Shown here piece after piece: positions 3 through 11,571 of a stretch of 18,491 nucleotides of DNA; within the stretch, counting starts at the first letter, position 1, and every line of letters begins with the position of its first letter. Both the position numbers and the translations under genes were made by a program. The notes beneath the pieces were generated by a model. That model saw only the letters and a program-made list of their open reading frames with translations. It was not told the origin of the DNA and searched no databases. The stretch is from a virus (taxonomy: Duplodnaviria > Heunggongvirae > Uroviricota > Caudoviricetes). The stretch lies in the IMG/VR virus record IMGVR_UViG_3300032050_000069; one strand, written 5' to 3'.

Positions 3-365
3 ACATTTGCTAATTTTGTATGGAATGACTATGCAATATGTGAAGCTGATAAATTCTTCTATGATAAAGAAGGTAATTACAACTTTGATGGTAGTAAGAT
101 AAAGCAAGCACATCAATGGTGTAGAGAGCAAGTGGAAATTCGTATGAAAGATAACGAAGCAAAACCACAATACTATCCTGAAATTGTAGTATCAAATACA
201 TTTACACAAGAGTGGGAAATGGATGAATACTTTAAGTTAGCAGAAAAGTATGGGTATAAGGTATTCACTTTGATTATGGAAAATAGACATGGTGGAGTAA
301 ATCAGCACGGAGTTCCTACTGATAAGTTAGAACAAATGAAAAATCGATTTGAAGTAAAATTATAA
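3..365 (+). CDS. AAA_33 / N4BP2-like P-loop kinase (putative polynucleotide kinase), 5'-truncated by the window edge
   Basis: The frame stays open from position 3 (TFANFVWNDYAICEADKFFYDKEGNYNFDGSKIKQAHQWC...), so the gene starts before the track's GTG at 132. Family-typical segments: EADxFF, HxWC, VVSNTF, ENRHG, HGVP. The Walker A motif would lie just outside the window. Confidence 0.8.
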   Translation, partial: TFANFVWNDYAICEADKFFYDKEGNYNFDGSKIKQAHQWCREQVEIRMKDNEAKPQYYPEIVVSNTFTQEWEMDEYFKLAEKYGYKVFTLIMENRHGGVNQHGVPTDKLEQMKNRFEVKL

Positions 366-369
366 AGAT

Positions 370-1509
370 ATGGAAAATAATAATTCAGTTTGCTACATTG
401 CAGCAATCAATGAGATTAACCCAATCGAAGGAGCTGATAACATTGAATTAGCAGTAGTTGGTGGTTGGAATTGTATCACTAAAAAAGGTGAGCAAAAAAT
501 AGGAGACTTAGTAATGGTTGCTACAACCGATGCTATTGTTCCATTTGAATTATCTGAAAAGATGGGTGTTACTAACTACTTACGAAAAGGTGGTAGAGTT
601 AGAACCGTTAAATTAAGAGGTGTTTATTCAGAATGTTTAATCATTCCAATCCAACATATTCCTTTTATGGAAAATTACTATGAAGGTAAGGATATGATGA
701 AGGTAATGGATATTTACAAATATGAACCACCTGTAAAGATGGTACAATTAGCAGGGGGTAAGAAAATTCGTTATCAAGACAATCCAAACTTCCATGTCTA
801 TTACAAATTCCCTAATTTAAAGAATGTGCCTAATATGTTCACCGAAGAGGATACAGTTGAAATCACTCGTAAGATTCACGGAACTAATGCCCGTTATGGT
901 ATTGTTAAGAAAGCTAAATTAACTATTTGGGATAGATTAAAAATCTCATTGGCTAAAAAGGTTAAGCCGGAATGGAAATGGGCTGAATACGAATTCGTAG
1001 TGGGTTCTCATAACGTAGAGAAAGGCTCAGATTCTAATGGATTCTATGATACTAATGTTTGGTATGAAATCGAAAAGAAATATAACATCAAACAAAAGTT
1101 GTGGGATTATGTAAAATCATCCGATTATGATATAATTGGAGATGGTATTACCTTATACGGTGAGATTTATGGAGCCGGAATCCAAAAGGGATATGATTAT
1201 GGGTTGAAAGAAATTGAGTTCGTAGGATTCGATGTAAAGGAGGAAGGTGAGTATTTAGACCCAATTAATTCAAAATTATTAATCGAACATATTTTAGAAT
1301 TACCTTATGTTGAACAATTATACTATGGTAGATGGTCACAAGAAGTGCAAGATAAGTATGTATTCAATAATTACATCAAAGGTACTAAAGTGCCAGAGGA
1401 GGGTATTGTAATCAAACATCAATCTAAAGGTAGAGAGAAGATAGCAAAGGTAATCAACCCTGACTATTTAATTTTCGCTGAAAAACATAATGTAGGTGAT
1501 TCACATTAA
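370..1509 (+). CDS. ATP-dependent RNA ligase, DRB0094 (Rnl5) family
   Basis: N-terminal OB-like module (IEGADNIELAVVGGW) and nucleotidyltransferase motifs I (KIHGTN), III (LYGEIYG), IIIa (FVGFDV), IV (EEGIVIK) and V (KVINPDYL). Confidence 0.9.
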   Translation: MENNNSVCYIAAINEINPIEGADNIELAVVGGWNCITKKGEQKIGDLVMVATTDAIVPFELSEKMGVTNYLRKGGRVRTVKLRGVYSECLIIPIQHIPFMENYYEGKDMMKVMDIYKYEPPVKMVQLAGGKKIRYQDNPNFHVYYKFPNLKNVPNMFTEEDTVEITRKIHGTNARYGIVKKAKLTIWDRLKISLAKKVKPEWKWAEYEFVVGSHNVEKGSDSNGFYDTNVWYEIEKKYNIKQKLWDYVKSSDYDIIGDGITLYGEIYGAGIQKGYDYGLKEIEFVGFDVKEEGEYLDPINSKLLIEHILELPYVEQLYYGRWSQEVQDKYVFNNYIKGTKVPEEGIVIKHQSKGREKIAKVINPDYLIFAEKHNVGDSH

Positions 1510-1515
1510 AATAAA

Positions 1516-1547
1516 TTTGGAAAATTAAAATAATAGCGGTATATTTG
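1516..1547 (+). promoter_or_regulatory. Bacteroidota sigma-A-type promoter upstream of the DIP1984-like gene
   Basis: TTTG at 1516-1519, 20-nt spacer, TATATTTG at 1540-1547 (TAnnTTTG). Confidence 0.8.
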
Positions 1548-1567
1548 TAAAAATAAATTCATAAAAG

Positions 1568-1996
1568 ATGAACGTAAAACAGGCATTAAAACAAAAAAAC
1601 AAATTGGTTACCGAAATGAAGGTTGCTTATGGCATTCTTCAAAAGTTTAACTCAATCGAAGAAGGTAATCCTCGTAGATACTCTATGGCGAATACTTTGG
1701 AAAAAATCAAAACTCTACAAGCAGAGTTAGTAGAATTGAAAACCAAAATCCACAAAGCAAATCAACCGGTGTATGATAAAATCTTTGCATTGGCAGAATT
1801 GAAGGGGATGATTAAGGAGTTGAAGAAAGTTTCAACCGAAGAAGGTAAAGTAAATGAAAGATACGGAAGTATCATTTCAGTAAAAGAAGTAGAATTAAAT
1901 GTAACCGATATTGATTCAGCGGTTTCGATATTGGAAACTCAAATTGAGGGATTGCAAAATGAATTAGATGTGCATAATGCAACAACTCAAATCTAA
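1568..1996 (+). CDS. DIP1984 / DUF6847-like coiled-coil protein
   Basis: 142 aa, all-helical. N-terminal MNVKQAL, central LKTKIHKAN and C-terminal LQNELDVHNATTQI resemble the family pattern (MKLAEAL...RINRTN...IQxxNWxTxL). Recognised from memory. Confidence 0.65.
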   Translation: MNVKQALKQKNKLVTEMKVAYGILQKFNSIEEGNPRRYSMANTLEKIKTLQAELVELKTKIHKANQPVYDKIFALAELKGMIKELKKVSTEEGKVNERYGSIISVKEVELNVTDIDSAVSILETQIEGLQNELDVHNATTQI

Positions 1997-2001
1997 AAAT
2001 A

Positions 2002-2203
2002 TTGAGTGAGTGGGGAATAGAAACTAATTTACTAGTATATTCTTACAAAGCAACTATGATGCCAAATAGCGGATAAACGAATAAGATAATGAATACTTAA
2101 CAAACTTCAACTATATTAGGGTCTCTTGTCGGCGATTTCAAAACAATCAAAACTCTATGAACCTGGATATCCTCTAAATTGGAATCTTTCCTCACAAACT
2201 CAA
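2002..2203 (+). ncRNA. Candidate structured ncRNA or 3' cis-element downstream of the DIP1984-like gene
   Basis: The ends pair: TTGAGTgaGTGGGGAA (2002-2017) with TTCCTCACaaACTCAA (2188-2203), 14 of 16 pairs, extendable by AGA(2019-21)/TCT(2185-87). Two internal helices: 2034-2045/2082-2097 and 2113-2120/2162-2170. Confidence 0.55.
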
Positions 2204-2225
2204 CCTTTAAAACAAACAAATAATT

Positions 2226-2645
2226 ATGAAACATTTTTTAACATTCCTTTTTGTTGTATCTCTTTCCGCAACTACAAAGGCTCAAATGATTTCGATTACA
2301 GGTGGTAATCTTAATCTACATGGAAAGGATAAAGGGTTTATTGAAGTTGAGGCAATGCAACATATTACAAAGAATGTAGCAACTCACATTTCTTACACAA
2401 AAACTATTGGTGGGTATGATATCGCTATGGTCGGTGGAAGATATGGATTTAAACAAAACCGATTGGGAGTTATGTTATCAGCCTGTTATATGGTTAATCA
2501 CAAAACTATGGCTATGGTTGGAGTAGATGTAAAACCATTTAAACATAGTCCAGTTCTTTTAACTTATAACATATCTAGCGATAAAGAACTTAAAACATTT
2601 GGAGTTAAGTTTCCAATATTTGATAATCACAAAAAACATCATTAA
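2226..2645 (+). CDS. Secreted protein, probable small outer-membrane beta-barrel
   Basis: Sec signal MKHFLTFLFVVSLSATTKA followed by Gln; about 8 short segments with alternating hydrophobic residues; aromatic terminal strand TFGVKFPIF. Confidence 0.6.
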   Translation: MKHFLTFLFVVSLSATTKAQMISITGGNLNLHGKDKGFIEVEAMQHITKNVATHISYTKTIGGYDIAMVGGRYGFKQNRLGVMLSACYMVNHKTMAMVGVDVKPFKHSPVLLTYNISSDKELKTFGVKFPIFDNHKKHH

Positions 2646-2647
2646 TT

Positions 2648-2905
2648 ATGTTTTTAACTTATTATGTAATTTGTTTCATCTATTGTGTTATAATGTCAAT
2701 TCGTAAATGGAATAGAGATGTAAGAGCTGGTGGATTGGGTATATCACCTGGCTTAGATTCTATTGCATTGTTAATTATGTGTTGGATACTAGCTCCAATA
2801 GATATATTCTTAACTTGGATAAGGGTATATAAGGAGGCTGAAGAAGCTAGAAGAAACCAAACTACATTAGATACAAAAGATTGGAAGAAAGAAGAAATTC
2901 TTTAA
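2648..2905 (+). CDS. Small membrane protein, two predicted TM segments
   Basis: Hydrophobic stretches 1-17 and about 38-57, GISPGLD loop; sits 2 nt after the upstream stop. Confidence 0.7.
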   Translation: MFLTYYVICFIYCVIMSIRKWNRDVRAGGLGISPGLDSIALLIMCWILAPIDIFLTWIRVYKEAEEARRNQTTLDTKDWKKEEIL

Positions 2906-2910
2906 ATTTA

Positions 2911-2998
2911 GGAGAGATGGCAGAGTTGGTCTATCGCACTTGACTTGAAATCAAGAGAACGGGAAACTGTTCCGTGGGTTCGAATCCTACTCTCTCCG
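2911..2998 (+). tRNA. tRNA-Ser (anticodon UGA), CCA not encoded
   Basis: Acceptor GGAGAGA/TCTCTCC, discriminator G, anticodon arm CTTGA-CTTGAAA-TCAAG (TGA at 2946-2948), long variable arm, T-loop GGTTCGAATCC. Confidence 0.95.
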
Positions 2999-3003
2999 CA
3001 TAT

Positions 3004-3150
3004 TGTAGTGTGTTGAAATTGGCAGACAAGCCTTCCTGTCTCGGAGGTGAGGAGCATCTGATAAACGTAGAATAATGGGTTGACCACAATGCCGGCAATG
3101 TTCTATGGCTAAAGACCTCGTATGGTGTTCGAATCCCATCACTACAGCCA
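3004..3150 (+). tRNA. Atypical tRNA-Asp(GUC)-like RNA, 147 nt, with 74-nt variable region and encoded CCA
   Basis: Acceptor TGTAGTG/CACTACA + G + CCA; D-arm TTG-AAATTGGCAGA-CAA; anticodon arm CCTTC-CTGTCTC-GGAGG; T-arm ATGG(T)G-TTCGAAT-CCCAT; insertion at 3048-3121. Confidence 0.75.
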
Positions 3151-3165
3151 AATAAAAAGAGTGTT

Positions 3166-3720
3166 ATGACATATAAGATTGAAAAAACTAAAATCAAAGA
3201 TTGTCTAATCATTAAGCCTGATGTGTTTAAGGATGAGAGGGGGTATTTTTCTACACCATTCGTTAAGGAGGTTTTAGAAGAAGCAATTAAGATTACCACC
3301 GGACAAAGTATAGAGTTTGTACAAGATAATGAATCGTTTTCAACTCAAAAAGTGGTTAGGGGTATTCATTTTCAGCAAGGAGAATGGGCACAATCGAAAT
3401 TAGTAAGATGTTCTTATGGATTAGTGAGAGATGTAATTGTGGATTTGAGACATGATTCGGAAACCTATGGTAAGCATATTACAATAGATTTGAGTGATAA
3501 GAATGGTAGAATGGTATTTGTTCCGAAAGGATGTGGACATGGATTTTCAGTTTTATCAGCGGAAGCGGTTTTTAATTACAAAGTTGATAATTATTATAAC
3601 AAGGATTCGGAAGGTGGAATTGTTTACAACGACCCTACACTCAATATAGATTGGGGATTCGATAATCGATTGGCAAAGGTTTCCGATAAAGACAAAAAGC
3701 TACCAAACTTCAAATTATAA
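3166..3720 (+). CDS. rmlC: dTDP-4-dehydrorhamnose 3,5-epimerase
   Basis: DERGYF, VQDNESFS, RGIHFQ, QSKLVRC, DLRHDSETYG, VPKGCGHGF, YKVDNYY, NDPTLNIDW motifs. Confidence 0.95.
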   Translation: MTYKIEKTKIKDCLIIKPDVFKDERGYFSTPFVKEVLEEAIKITTGQSIEFVQDNESFSTQKVVRGIHFQQGEWAQSKLVRCSYGLVRDVIVDLRHDSETYGKHITIDLSDKNGRMVFVPKGCGHGFSVLSAEAVFNYKVDNYYNKDSEGGIVYNDPTLNIDWGFDNRLAKVSDKDKKLPNFKL

Positions 3721-4232
3721 TGGATTACAAAGAATACATTAGAGATGTAAGTGATTTTCCAAAAAAGGATATCATTTTCAAAGACATCACACCACTATTA
3801 GCATCACAAAAAGCATTTTCATCAGTAATAGATGACCTTTCAGTTTTGATAGATGATAAATTTGGAATCGTAAATATAGCAGGTATTGAAAGTAGGGGTT
3901 TTATATTCGGTTCAGCAATTGCAGCTTTGAATGGAGAAGGATTCATTCCCATTCGTAAAGAAGGTAAACTCCCGCCACCAAAAGTTGCAACATTCTCCAC
4001 CAAAGAATATGGAACTGAAATGCTAGAAGTAAAAGAATGTGAGGATAAATTCAATAAAGTAATTATTGTAGATGATGTGTTGGCAACAGGGGGTACATTA
4101 ATAGCAGCTGAAAAGTTATTAAATAATGCAGGATATAAAGTAATTGGGGCAGTTACCTTAATAGATTTAACTTACTTACATTCTGAAATCAAAATTGGTG
4201 GCAAGCTCGTATATAGTTTAATTCAATATTAA
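3720..4232 (+). CDS. apt: Adenine phosphoribosyltransferase
   Basis: DFPKKDIIFKDITPLL, GIESRGFIFG, IRKEGKLP, EYG, and the PRPP-binding motif IIVDDVLATGGT. Confidence 0.93.
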   Translation: MDYKEYIRDVSDFPKKDIIFKDITPLLASQKAFSSVIDDLSVLIDDKFGIVNIAGIESRGFIFGSAIAALNGEGFIPIRKEGKLPPPKVATFSTKEYGTEMLEVKECEDKFNKVIIVDDVLATGGTLIAAEKLLNNAGYKVIGAVTLIDLTYLHSEIKIGGKLVYSLIQY

Positions 4233-5665: not shown

Positions 5666-7312
<1,647 letters not shown>

Positions 7313-9649: not shown

Positions 9650-10504
9650 ATGAGATTCGTTTATCTACCGACGTTAAATGTTTTAATCATATTTTTTAAT
9701 AAATCTGGTAGCACATTATATTGTGGGTGGATTGAAAATGTAATAACATTTTTAGGAGTTCCTTATGAATTAAAATTACATAACGAAATAGATTATATTG
9801 ATTTTATAGAAAAGGTATATGATAAAAAACCAAAGATATATTTCTTTGTTCGTAATCCTTTGGAGAGAGTTGTAACTTCGTTCTATTGGTTAAATACATT
9901 CGATATAAAATCAAAGGATAGCCAATTTCCATTAGATGAATTCATTACCTATGCGGATAATTTAGAGCAATCAATAGAAAAAAGTGATGATATGCATCTC
10001 CTACCACAGAGTTGGGAATTGATTAAATGGAATAACTACATAAATGGTAGAGAAAACTCAATGTTTGAATTTAAAAATTTTAGATACGATAAGAGGTTTT
10101 TTAAGGGTTGTGAGATTGTTATTGTTCAAATTGAAAAATTCCAAAAGAATTTCGATGCACTAATTCAATCGCTATTTGCTGATAATTATATTCCATCCTA
10201 TAATAAGTTGGAAGAGGTAGGTAATCATCATTACTACAAAAACTCATTTGGAATTATAGAAGAACTCCATCAACAAAAAACTAATTTTGAAATGATGTTC
10301 TCTTTACTTTCCTATAACTTTGTTGAATCAAATTTAAAAAAGCAAACCCACCACAATAATTTGTATGGGGGGTTGATAATTCGATTGGAAAAAATTAAAG
10401 AAGGAGTTCTCTCCCTAAATAAAATAAATGAAATTCTGGCTAATGAAAGCAAGTGGTTAGGATACGATAATTCCCTTATTTTAAATATGAATAGATTTAT
10501 ATGA
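9650..10504 (+). CDS. Sulfotransferase family 2 protein (paralogue A)
   Basis: 5'-PAPS loop FNKSGSTL, 3'-PAP motif FVRNPLERVVTSF, HLLPQ. Confidence 0.75.
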   Translation: MRFVYLPTLNVLIIFFNKSGSTLYCGWIENVITFLGVPYELKLHNEIDYIDFIEKVYDKKPKIYFFVRNPLERVVTSFYWLNTFDIKSKDSQFPLDEFITYADNLEQSIEKSDDMHLLPQSWELIKWNNYINGRENSMFEFKNFRYDKRFFKGCEIVIVQIEKFQKNFDALIQSLFADNYIPSYNKLEEVGNHHYYKNSFGIIEELHQQKTNFEMMFSLLSYNFVESNLKKQTHHNNLYGGLIIRLEKIKEGVLSLNKINEILANESKWLGYDNSLILNMNRFI

Positions 10505-11571
10505 TGAAAGCATTAACTTACGATGACATCCAATTAGTTCCCGCTTATTCGGAAATCACATCAAGACAAAACATCAGCCTCAATACCCTATTAAGTAGAA
10601 GATATGGTTTGTTGAATCCAATTGTTGCATCACCTATGGATACTATATGTGGTGAAGAGATGGCCTATAAAATGATGTTATTGGGAGGAGTTGGTTGTGT
10701 GCATCGATTTATGACGATTGAAGAGCAAGTTGAAATAATTAGGAATTTGAGATACCGAATCTATGGAGATGGCTTTGGTGGCCCATTTGAAGATTGGGGG
10801 GTAATGTATGATGATTGGCATGCCGAAGAACCTTATGTTCCAATTATGGCGGCCATAGGAGTTCAAAGTGAAGATAAGGATAGAGCAAAAATGATTACTG
10901 ATGCGGGTGTGAATGTTCTCCTAATTGATGTAGCACATGGTCATCATAAGAATGTTATTCAGATGATTAAGTGGTGTAAGGATAATCTGAATGATAAAGT
11001 TGATGTAATAGCTGGAAATATAGCAACTGCGGATGCGGCTATTGATTTAGAAAGGGCAGGGGCTGATGGATTAAGAGTTGGTATTGGTGGAGGTTCTCTT
11101 TGCACTACAAGAGTTAAAACAGGCTTTGGTATTCCAAATGTTACTTCTCTTCAACAAGTTTTAGAAGTTTCAACTGTGCCGGTTATGGCAGATGGTGGGA
11201 TAAGAAGTAGCGGTGATATAGCAAAGGCATTGGCAATAGGAGCATCTAATGTTATGTTAGGCTCATTATTGGCGGGAACTGACGAAGCACCTGGTCAAAT
11301 TATAGAAAAGGCAAATGGTTTATATAAAAGATATAGAGGTGCAGCATCTTTGGAAACTAAACTAACACACAACCAACAGGCGAGAAATGTTGAGGGAGAG
11401 AGTACAGTAGTTCCATATAAAGGAGGGGTTAAGTTCATCGTTAATGGTATATTAGATGGAGTAAAATCTGCTTTAAGTTATGCGGGAGCAAATAATCTAA
11501 AAGAATTTAAACCAGATTATGTTGAGGTTACGAATGCAGGAATGATAGAAGCAAAACCACATTTAATATGA
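10501..11571 (+). CDS. IMPDH/GMP reductase family enzyme without CBS domains, probably GMP reductase
   Basis: ASPMDT, IDVAHGH, GNIAT, catalytic loop [33 protein letters not shown]. The flap lacks the Arg-Tyr dyad of IMPDH. Confidence 0.85.

Follow-up and report, generated by a model that had tools for sequence, protein, structure and literature searches.

Bacteriophage T4 answers PrrC with Pnkp and Rnl1, that is, with a 5'-kinase, a 3'-phosphatase and an ATP-dependent ligase found beside phage tRNAs. A comparable gene set is described here from a viral DNA stretch of 18,491 nucleotides, hereafter the window, which is the minus strand of G000:C1:40517-59007 in IMG/VR record IMGVR_UViG_3300032050_000069. 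On one strand, in the phage tRNA region, the genes follow each other in the order HAD_SAK_2 phosphatase, calcineurin-type phosphoesterase, DUF7352, polynucleotide kinase (PNK)-like kinase and Rnl5-type RNA ligase. The kinase, the two phosphoesterases and the ligase probably constitute a full heal-and-seal operon, a known kind of phage counter-defence. The two groups of elements that follow, a DIP1984-like gene with a structured RNA (the cassette) and a tRNA-Ser with a tRNA-like RNA bearing a giant arm, are probably independent of the operon.

The kinase has the same fold and active-site layout as T4 Pnk. In contrast to T4 Pnkp, it is a stand-alone protein of 138 aa that comprises the kinase only, with no fused phosphatase domain, and the phosphoesterases are separate genes. 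The 3' healing that T4 assigns to Pnkp would be carried out by a separate calcineurin-type enzyme and a HAD_SAK_2 protein, and the ligase is of the Rnl5 type with an N-terminal OB domain rather than Rnl1. The pairing of a PNK-fold kinase with a dinuclear metallophosphoesterase as the 3' healer resembles C. thermocellum Pnkp and bacterial Pnkp-Hen1 (PMC2190708). However, the enzymes here are separate polypeptides, and neither a fused Hen1 methyltransferase nor an adenylyltransferase domain is present.

The ligase shares with DraRnl (DRB0094) and NgrRnl the two-domain plan of OB and nucleotidyltransferase domains, and this group gives the best solved-structure match. It is only ~24% identical to DraRnl by tblastn, and differs also in its viral context with healing enzymes. 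The closest published gene sets are the jumbo-phage toolkits of Iyer et al. 2021 (PMC7824862). In the available portion of that text, they consist of tRNA arrays, ATP-dependent ligases, PNK, a Swiss-army-knife HAD and occasional calcineurin-like phosphatases, and are interpreted as an answer to host attack on tRNA. The present locus has the same make-up, but the phage ligases named in that portion are Rnl1, Rnl2 and RtcB, and it makes no mention of a DIP1984-like gene with an RNA or of a giant-armed RNA.

The source record is one IMG/VR contig of 103,085 bp with 32% G+C and a CheckV completeness of 40%. Related contigs reach sizes of up to 238-288 kb, and the 103-kb record is therefore a fragment of a jumbo phage. 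ARAGORN finds 23 tRNAs and a tmRNA-like gene in the record, and 22 of the 23 tRNAs are clustered 2.5-7 kb upstream of the window.

The predicted repair operon

Linkage was counted within 8 kb in 80 viral loci anchored on ligase homologues of 62-92% identity. The kinase accompanies the ligase on the same strand in 66 of these loci and lies directly upstream of it in 40. Both the kinase and the phosphoesterase are near the ligase in 44 loci, and at least one healing gene is present in 73. An RNA-repair module with healing and sealing functions had been proposed in an earlier sequence-only reading, and the complete enzyme set together with the kinase-ligase linkage across the 80 loci bears this out. 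That reading had also advised looking upstream for a 3'-end healer. A metallophosphoesterase and a HAD_SAK_2 phosphatase are found just upstream, and the 3'-end healer that is absent from the window would therefore be present, possibly twice.

The full kinase matches AAA_33 (1.6e-11) and the polynucleotide kinase family phrog_505 (2.7e-6), and its Walker A motif is GLPGSGKS at residues 11-18. Among 28 homologues the P-loop is invariant, and in the E-A-D triplet, which aligns with the RDD of T4 Pnk, E32 and D34 are invariant and A33 is nearly so. The presence of a P-loop fold, a Walker A motif and a general-base Asp after strand 2 places the protein in the PNK type. The kinase sequence alone had no phmmer match in the PDB, and a profile and a fold search were needed to find its relatives. 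The profile of the 28 homologues has T4 Pnk (1LTQ) as its best solved relative at 1e-4, followed by fungal Trl1-type kinases, Pnkp1 and C. thermocellum Pnk. The best Foldseek matches of the AF2 model (pLDDT 88) are 1LY1, 4GP6 and 4JST, which represent T4 Pnk and CthPnk, with a TM of ~0.7.

The N-terminal OB domain of the ligase matches PF21189 (PHA02142-type) over residues 10-94 (3.4e-15), the nucleotidyltransferase domain matches PF09414 (RNA_ligase) over residues 162-362 (3.2e-14), and the protein also matches phrog_968 (2.6e-60). Its best solved relative is the Naegleria gruberi Rnl (5COT/6VT3, 8e-18), with an alignment that spans residues 9-128. The motifs K168-IHG (motif I), EGIVIK at 344, LYGEIYG and KIAKVINP are taken to be those of the nucleotidyltransferase, an assignment made from general knowledge of the superfamily. 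The protein thus combines the OB plus nucleotidyltransferase architecture of Rnl5 with the covalent nucleotidyltransferase motifs, including the motif I lysine.

The HAD_SAK_2 protein matches PF18143 at 9.4e-21 (75.1 bits, cut-off 27.5) and has the DxDG motif as DHDGV at residue 7. The calcineurin-like metallophosphoesterase matches phrog_547 (6.4e-43) and carries the metal-binding motifs DTH at 16, GD at 68-69, GNHD at 95 and GHVH at 159-162. Both are predicted to be RNA 3'-end healers. In the proposed pathway, one or both phosphoesterases would open the end on the 3' side of a broken RNA and take off the 3' phosphate, and the kinase would phosphorylate the 5'-OH. The ligase, via lysyl-AMP on K168, would then join the 3'-OH/5'-PO4 break with the ends held in duplex.

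Several points weigh against a counter-defence operon of this kind. The activities, the substrates and the role of the enzymes are read from genes, folds and motifs. The ligase reaches 99.7 bits (1.5e-28) against TIGR02306 (DRB0094), which is below the equivalog cut-off of 151.15 bits, and it is therefore a distant Rnl5 member that is not callable as an equivalog. The phosphoesterase is marginal in Pfam (PF00149, 22.4 bits against a cut-off of 21.5), and its nearest solved relative is an uncharacterised Aquifex protein. The characterised Rnl5 enzymes seal duplex nicks with an RNA 3'-OH strand (PMC4408790). None of them is known to act on breaks in the anticodon loop, which T4 Rnl1 does seal, and therefore the true substrate of this ligase may not be the anticodon loop.

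Such a nick-sealing activity would also suit an enzyme set that serves the phage's own nucleic-acid metabolism, either in the maturation of tRNA transcripts or in the sealing of RNA-ended nicks in replication or repair intermediates. The position of the operon among 23 tRNA genes fits this explanation, as does the setting of the founding member, DRB0094, on the D. radiodurans megaplasmid, where another ligase-family gene, an AAA ATPase and a TIGR02452 protein adjoin it in what is not a phage-defence setting. However, the comparative work of Iyer et al. assigns the toolkit to counter-defence. Moreover, the occurrence of the genes among related phages is patchy, which is typical of conflict genes, and a purely metabolic role is considered unlikely. 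The locus extends the known tRNA/RNA-repair repertoire of freshwater Bacteroidota jumbo phages by a ligase of the Rnl5 type whose healing partners are split over separate genes. This helps annotation and offers compact enzymes for modifying RNA ends, the small kinase among them.

Separate occurrence of the three units

All six elements listed in the sequence-only reading, namely the kinase, the ligase, the DIP1984-like protein and three RNAs, are present on the + strand of the window (Table 1). That reading had united them in a single system in which the enzymes and the protein would cooperate with the RNAs, the odd ones acting as decoys, ligase substrates or scaffolds. The compactness of the block speaks for such cooperation, as all parts lie on one strand within 3.2 kb and six relatives keep the Rnl, the DIP1984-like gene, its RNA, orf85, the tRNA-Ser and the giant-armed RNA together. 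However, the six syntenic relatives are close kin with 73-82% ligase identity, and in whole phage records the units occur separately.

The RNA of the cassette comes after the DIP1984-like gene both with and without repair genes in the vicinity. Among 13 cassette-bearing records that lack repair genes close by, none has this ligase anywhere, and four of these records are at least 91% complete. In three of the four, searches for PF09414, PF09511 and RtcB found no ligase of the Rnl1, Rnl2/5 or RtcB families. Conversely, the DIP1984-like gene is missing from all 10 ligase-bearing records searched, of which six are at least 93% complete, and the search recovered its one positive control. Only 6 of the 80 ligase loci, all of them close relatives, have the giant-armed RNA within 8 kb of the ligase. 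Among five phage records with this RNA, one has the ligase and none has the DIP1984-like gene. The giant-armed RNA also occurs in Bacteroidota chromosomes beside unrelated genes, away from repair genes, and in phages that lack both the ligase and the cassette.

The linkage expected by the sequence-only reading is thus conserved for the enzymes (kinase with ligase) and is not conserved between the RNAs and the ligase, and a role of the odd RNAs as decoys, substrates or scaffolds is not supported. The integrated system is accordingly judged quite improbable. The stretch is more plausibly divided, with reasonable probability, into three units: the repair operon, the cassette of the DIP1984-like gene and its RNA, and the tRNA-Ser with the giant-armed RNA as the tail of the tRNA array. 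Two points detract from this division. Of 80 loci anchored on the DIP1984-like protein, 46 have one or more repair genes no further than 8 kb from the cassette, in several different orders, which also counts in favour of the integrated system and makes some functional tie possible. In addition, many of the viral records in the counts are fragments. The cassette and the repair genes are partly co-located, and the link is not obligate. Keeping the units apart guards against a plausible but wrong annotation as a decoy system.

Table 1. Features of the window, with window coordinates, the matches or models on which each is based, and remarks.
Feature	Position	Strand	Basis	Remarks
PNK-like P-loop kinase, 3' part	3..365	+		last 120 of 138 codons; gene start 51 nt before the window
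ATP-dependent RNA ligase, Rnl5 (DraRnl/NgrRnl, DRB0094) type	370..1509	+	PF21189, PF09414, phrog_968, TIGR02306	
Candidate Bacteroidota-type promoter, TTTG ... TAtaTTTG	1516..1547	+	read from sequence	before the DIP1984-like gene
Helical protein of 142 aa, distant DIP1984/DUF6847 ('septicolysin') relative	1568..1996	+	NF038048, fold 3KDQ	
Structured RNA, ~200-225 nt (cassette RNA)	~1995..2220	+	models R2, R3	begins 1-2 nt downstream of the DIP1984-like stop codon
Open reading frame of 139 aa	2226..2645	+		signal-peptide-like N-terminus; inserted in this genome alone, between cassette RNA and orf85; outside the module
Small hydrophobic protein of 85 aa (orf85)	2648..2905	+		syntenic only in close relatives; no family match
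tRNA-Ser(UGA), ordinary class II	2911..2999	+	ARAGORN; Rfam RF00005, 54.2 bits	
Giant-armed tRNA-Asp-like RNA	3003..3147, with CCA to 3150	+	model R1, 169 bits	145 nt

The DIP1984-like gene and its RNA

Bacteroidota promoters follow the consensus TTTG/TAnnTTTG, and a box of this form, a candidate promoter, precedes the DIP1984-like gene.

The window protein alone matches NF038048 with an E of 0.004 over profile positions 4-141 of 149. Its 17.5 bits are below the cut-off of 70, and PF20935 gave no match at E<=0.01. The homologues are clearer members, as nine out of nine match NF038048, with 2.4e-8 as the best value, and the similarity extends over the full length. The fold agrees with this assignment. 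The AF2 model (pLDDT 84) has as its best PDB fold 3KDQ, a Corynebacterium diphtheriae protein of unknown function, with a TM of 0.69-0.82, and its Atlas neighbours include PF20935 clusters. A PDB sequence-profile search with the alignment of the family yielded nothing real, and 3KDQ was seen by the fold search alone. The homologue search returned 1269 relatives, of which the 120 listed are close relatives without a Pfam domain. No functional data on DIP1984 or septicolysin were found in the literature, and no RNA-binding motif was identified in the protein. A possible DUF6847 neighbour of DRB0094 in D. radiodurans was also sought; the open reading frames adjoining DRB0094 are unrelated, and the control genome gave its match.

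The RNA is closed by a helix of ~28 pairs, and its conserved core is rich in A, C and U and includes UCAA repeats and AAAACUCUUU. The single-sequence fold is weak evidence (z -2.0), and the comparative data carry the structure. Between the genes, the stretch 1997-2225 shares 84-86% identity with six relatives and is thus conserved at least as well as the flanking coding DNA; its ends form a long helix with compensatory changes. Structural alignment was made through the covariance models R2 and R3. Model R2 finds the element at the same place in 24 loci, and in 19 distinct sequences 93% of the proposed partners pair, against 32-44% with slid partners. Model R3 extends the family with weak matches in loci of 43-50% protein identity; 18 of its 22 matches at E<0.5 are exactly at the 3' end of a DIP1984-like gene on the same strand. 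In the combined set of 31 distinct RNAs, 89.6% of cells are paired against 34-44% in slid controls, and changes on both sides are seen in 40 of 45 pairs. The covariation score reaches 0.42, whereas the controls stay at or below 0.09.

The position of the RNA is equally constant. It starts 1-2 nt past the stop codon in 22 of the 23 loci, among the 80, with at least 60% protein identity. More distant loci have a non-coding gap of 157-255 nt with the same closing-helix plan and a UCAA-rich core containing AAAACUCUUU, and a terminator-like hairpin often comes after the gap. A search with Rfam at E<=10 over 1900-3250 gave only the tRNA-Ser and chance matches, and neither odd RNA was matched. By its covariation and placement, the cassette RNA constitutes a genuine RNA family that is coupled to the DIP1984-like gene. 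The promoter, gene and RNA are probably a self-contained cassette, a protein-RNA pair.

The most conserved unpaired motif of the RNA is AAAACUCUUU, which is present at 2140-2160 of the window and family-wide (alignment A11). It is complementary to AAGAGUUU, a sequence from the 5' end of 16S rRNA, and this 8-mer match could be chance. Some distant cassettes (L228, L264, L268, L270: 8440-8628) have an inserted open reading frame of 62 aa, zinc-ribbon-like with its two CxxC pairs, that separates the RNA from the DIP1984-like gene.

The nearest described parallel is Ro60 (Rsr/TROVE) with Y RNA beside RtcB, which likewise pairs a protein gene with an RNA closed by a long terminal helix near RNA-repair genes. 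By this parallel, the DIP1984-like protein and its RNA could be an optional accessory particle for RNA damage responses in some phages, acting as a platform or sensor. Gene and RNA are tightly coupled over 43-100% protein identity, and the repair genes within 8 kb in the 46 loci mentioned above include the metallophosphoesterase (36), the HAD protein (30), the Rnl (24) and the kinase (20). For some jumbo phages, Ro/TROVE together with a tRNA-like RNA partner has also been noted (PMC7824862). However, the DIP1984-like protein has no sequence or fold relation to TROVE and no recognizable RNA-binding motif, and the RNA has no Rfam Y-RNA match. No TROVE (PF05731) or RlaP gene was found in the 103-kb record, which is only 40% complete. 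In addition, the cassette is present in genomes without a detectable ligase, as three of the four complete cassette genomes lack an Rnl1, Rnl2/5 or RtcB ligase, and the co-location may only reflect an RNA island shared by these phages. An accessory particle of this kind is thus regarded as doubtful, and a self-contained cassette remains the preferred description.

Equally tentative, and unlikely in its full form, is a wider proposal on the two odd RNAs. In this proposal, the DIP1984-like protein and its RNA would form a new type of phage ribonucleoprotein that takes part in the struggle over the translation apparatus. It could, for example, be a sponge or sensor for RNA-cutting effectors of the host, or an optional repair platform. 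Separately, the giant-armed RNA would be a non-decoding tRNA mimic common to Bacteroidota and their phages. If true, the ribonucleoprotein would give the DIP1984/DUF6847 ('septicolysin') family its first function. Through its tight coupling to the cassette RNA, this functionally uncharacterised protein family gains a first testable partner.

The giant-armed RNA and the surrounding genes

The giant-armed RNA consists of an acceptor stem, a 3-bp D stem, an anticodon stem, a branched arm of ~73 nt, a T arm with a bulged U, G73 and an encoded CCA. The anticodon loop is invariantly CUGUCUC, with the anticodon GUC and a U at position 37. The stretch 3003-3147 is 72% identical to part of a tRNA cluster in the 636-kb phage LR756504, with compensatory changes in every stem, and all 39 proposed pairs of the cloverleaf are standard in both of these founding sequences. 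Further viral contigs with the RNA were identified by model R1. In nine distinct viral sequences, 99% of cells are paired, 20 of the 39 pairs show compensatory changes, and the loop sequences of the arm are conserved.

The RNA resembles class II tRNAs (Ser, Leu, Tyr; RF00005) in its acceptor, D (3 bp), anticodon and T arms and in its U33 loop. In contrast, its arm of ~73 nt is branched, has conserved loop sequences and goes beyond the limits of a normal tRNA variable region, and position 37 is a pyrimidine. These features and the absence of any match by ARAGORN or the Rfam tRNA model set it apart from ordinary tRNAs. The same phage also encodes a normal tRNA-Asp(GUC). Six close relatives have the tRNA-Ser ahead of the giant-armed RNA, in five cases immediately so, and this order recurs in L025 and L091.

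A loose DNA pattern for the RNA gave mostly chance matches, which were filtered with model R1. A genome scan combined with R1 yielded 37 further copies in genome contigs at 86-139 bits, and all those with displayed titles are from Bacteroidota, including Dyadobacter, Spirosoma, Larkinella, Aquirufa, Ohtaekwangia, Cyclobacteriaceae and Saprospiraceae. In the seven bacterial loci checked, the RNA stands apart from tRNA genes, and the flanking genes of the bacterial copies that were scanned are not repair genes. On these comparisons, the giant-armed RNA is most readily understood as an RNA gene of host type that the phage carries within its tRNA array. The candidate promoter box at 1516-1547 and the presence of this one phage RNA in Bacteroidota chromosomes suggest a Bacteroidota host for the phage. 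The larger point of the analysis lies in the two odd RNAs, which have no Rfam family, show strong covariation and are abundant in viral metagenomes.

In several Cytophagales, the giant-armed RNA is divergent beside a gene for an Lrp/AsnC-family regulator, as in Aquirufa, Dyadobacter and Spirosoma (L355:3852-4316, L298:2800-3270, L299:6921-7424). Some contigs of bacterial metagenome-assembled genomes have two or three tandem copies (L296:3383-3941, L303:6887-7270, L288:5426-5860). A variant of 118 nt at L091:3806-3923 (-), directly after a tRNA-Ser(UGA), keeps the acceptor stem, the T arm and the big arm and is without the D and anticodon arms; it may be a decayed copy or a minimal functional form. 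Over-long R1 matches of 104-159 nt without an ARAGORN call, at L089:10173-10280, 10394-10517, 10650-10808 and 1957-2060, may be tRNA-shaped RNAs with insertions.

Among the other genes of the window, the 139-aa open reading frame has no family match and no tblastn match in the 160 ligase- or cassette-anchored loci. In contrast, orf85 has matches in 6 of the 80 loci anchored on the ligase and in 11 of the 80 anchored on the cassette. Outside the window, ARAGORN places the tmRNA at ~6838-7219 of G000:C1 (reverse-complement 95867-96248), with relatives at L125:274-644 and L136:1734-2119. Its tag is conserved in this genome and the two relatives and ends in ...AFVGADYAVAA or ...AFVGMDYAVAA. Directly downstream of the RNAs, at 3166-4232 of the window, a dTDP-4-dehydrorhamnose 3,5-epimerase gene (PF00908, 1e-61) is followed by a phosphoribosyltransferase gene, and both are auxiliary metabolic genes.

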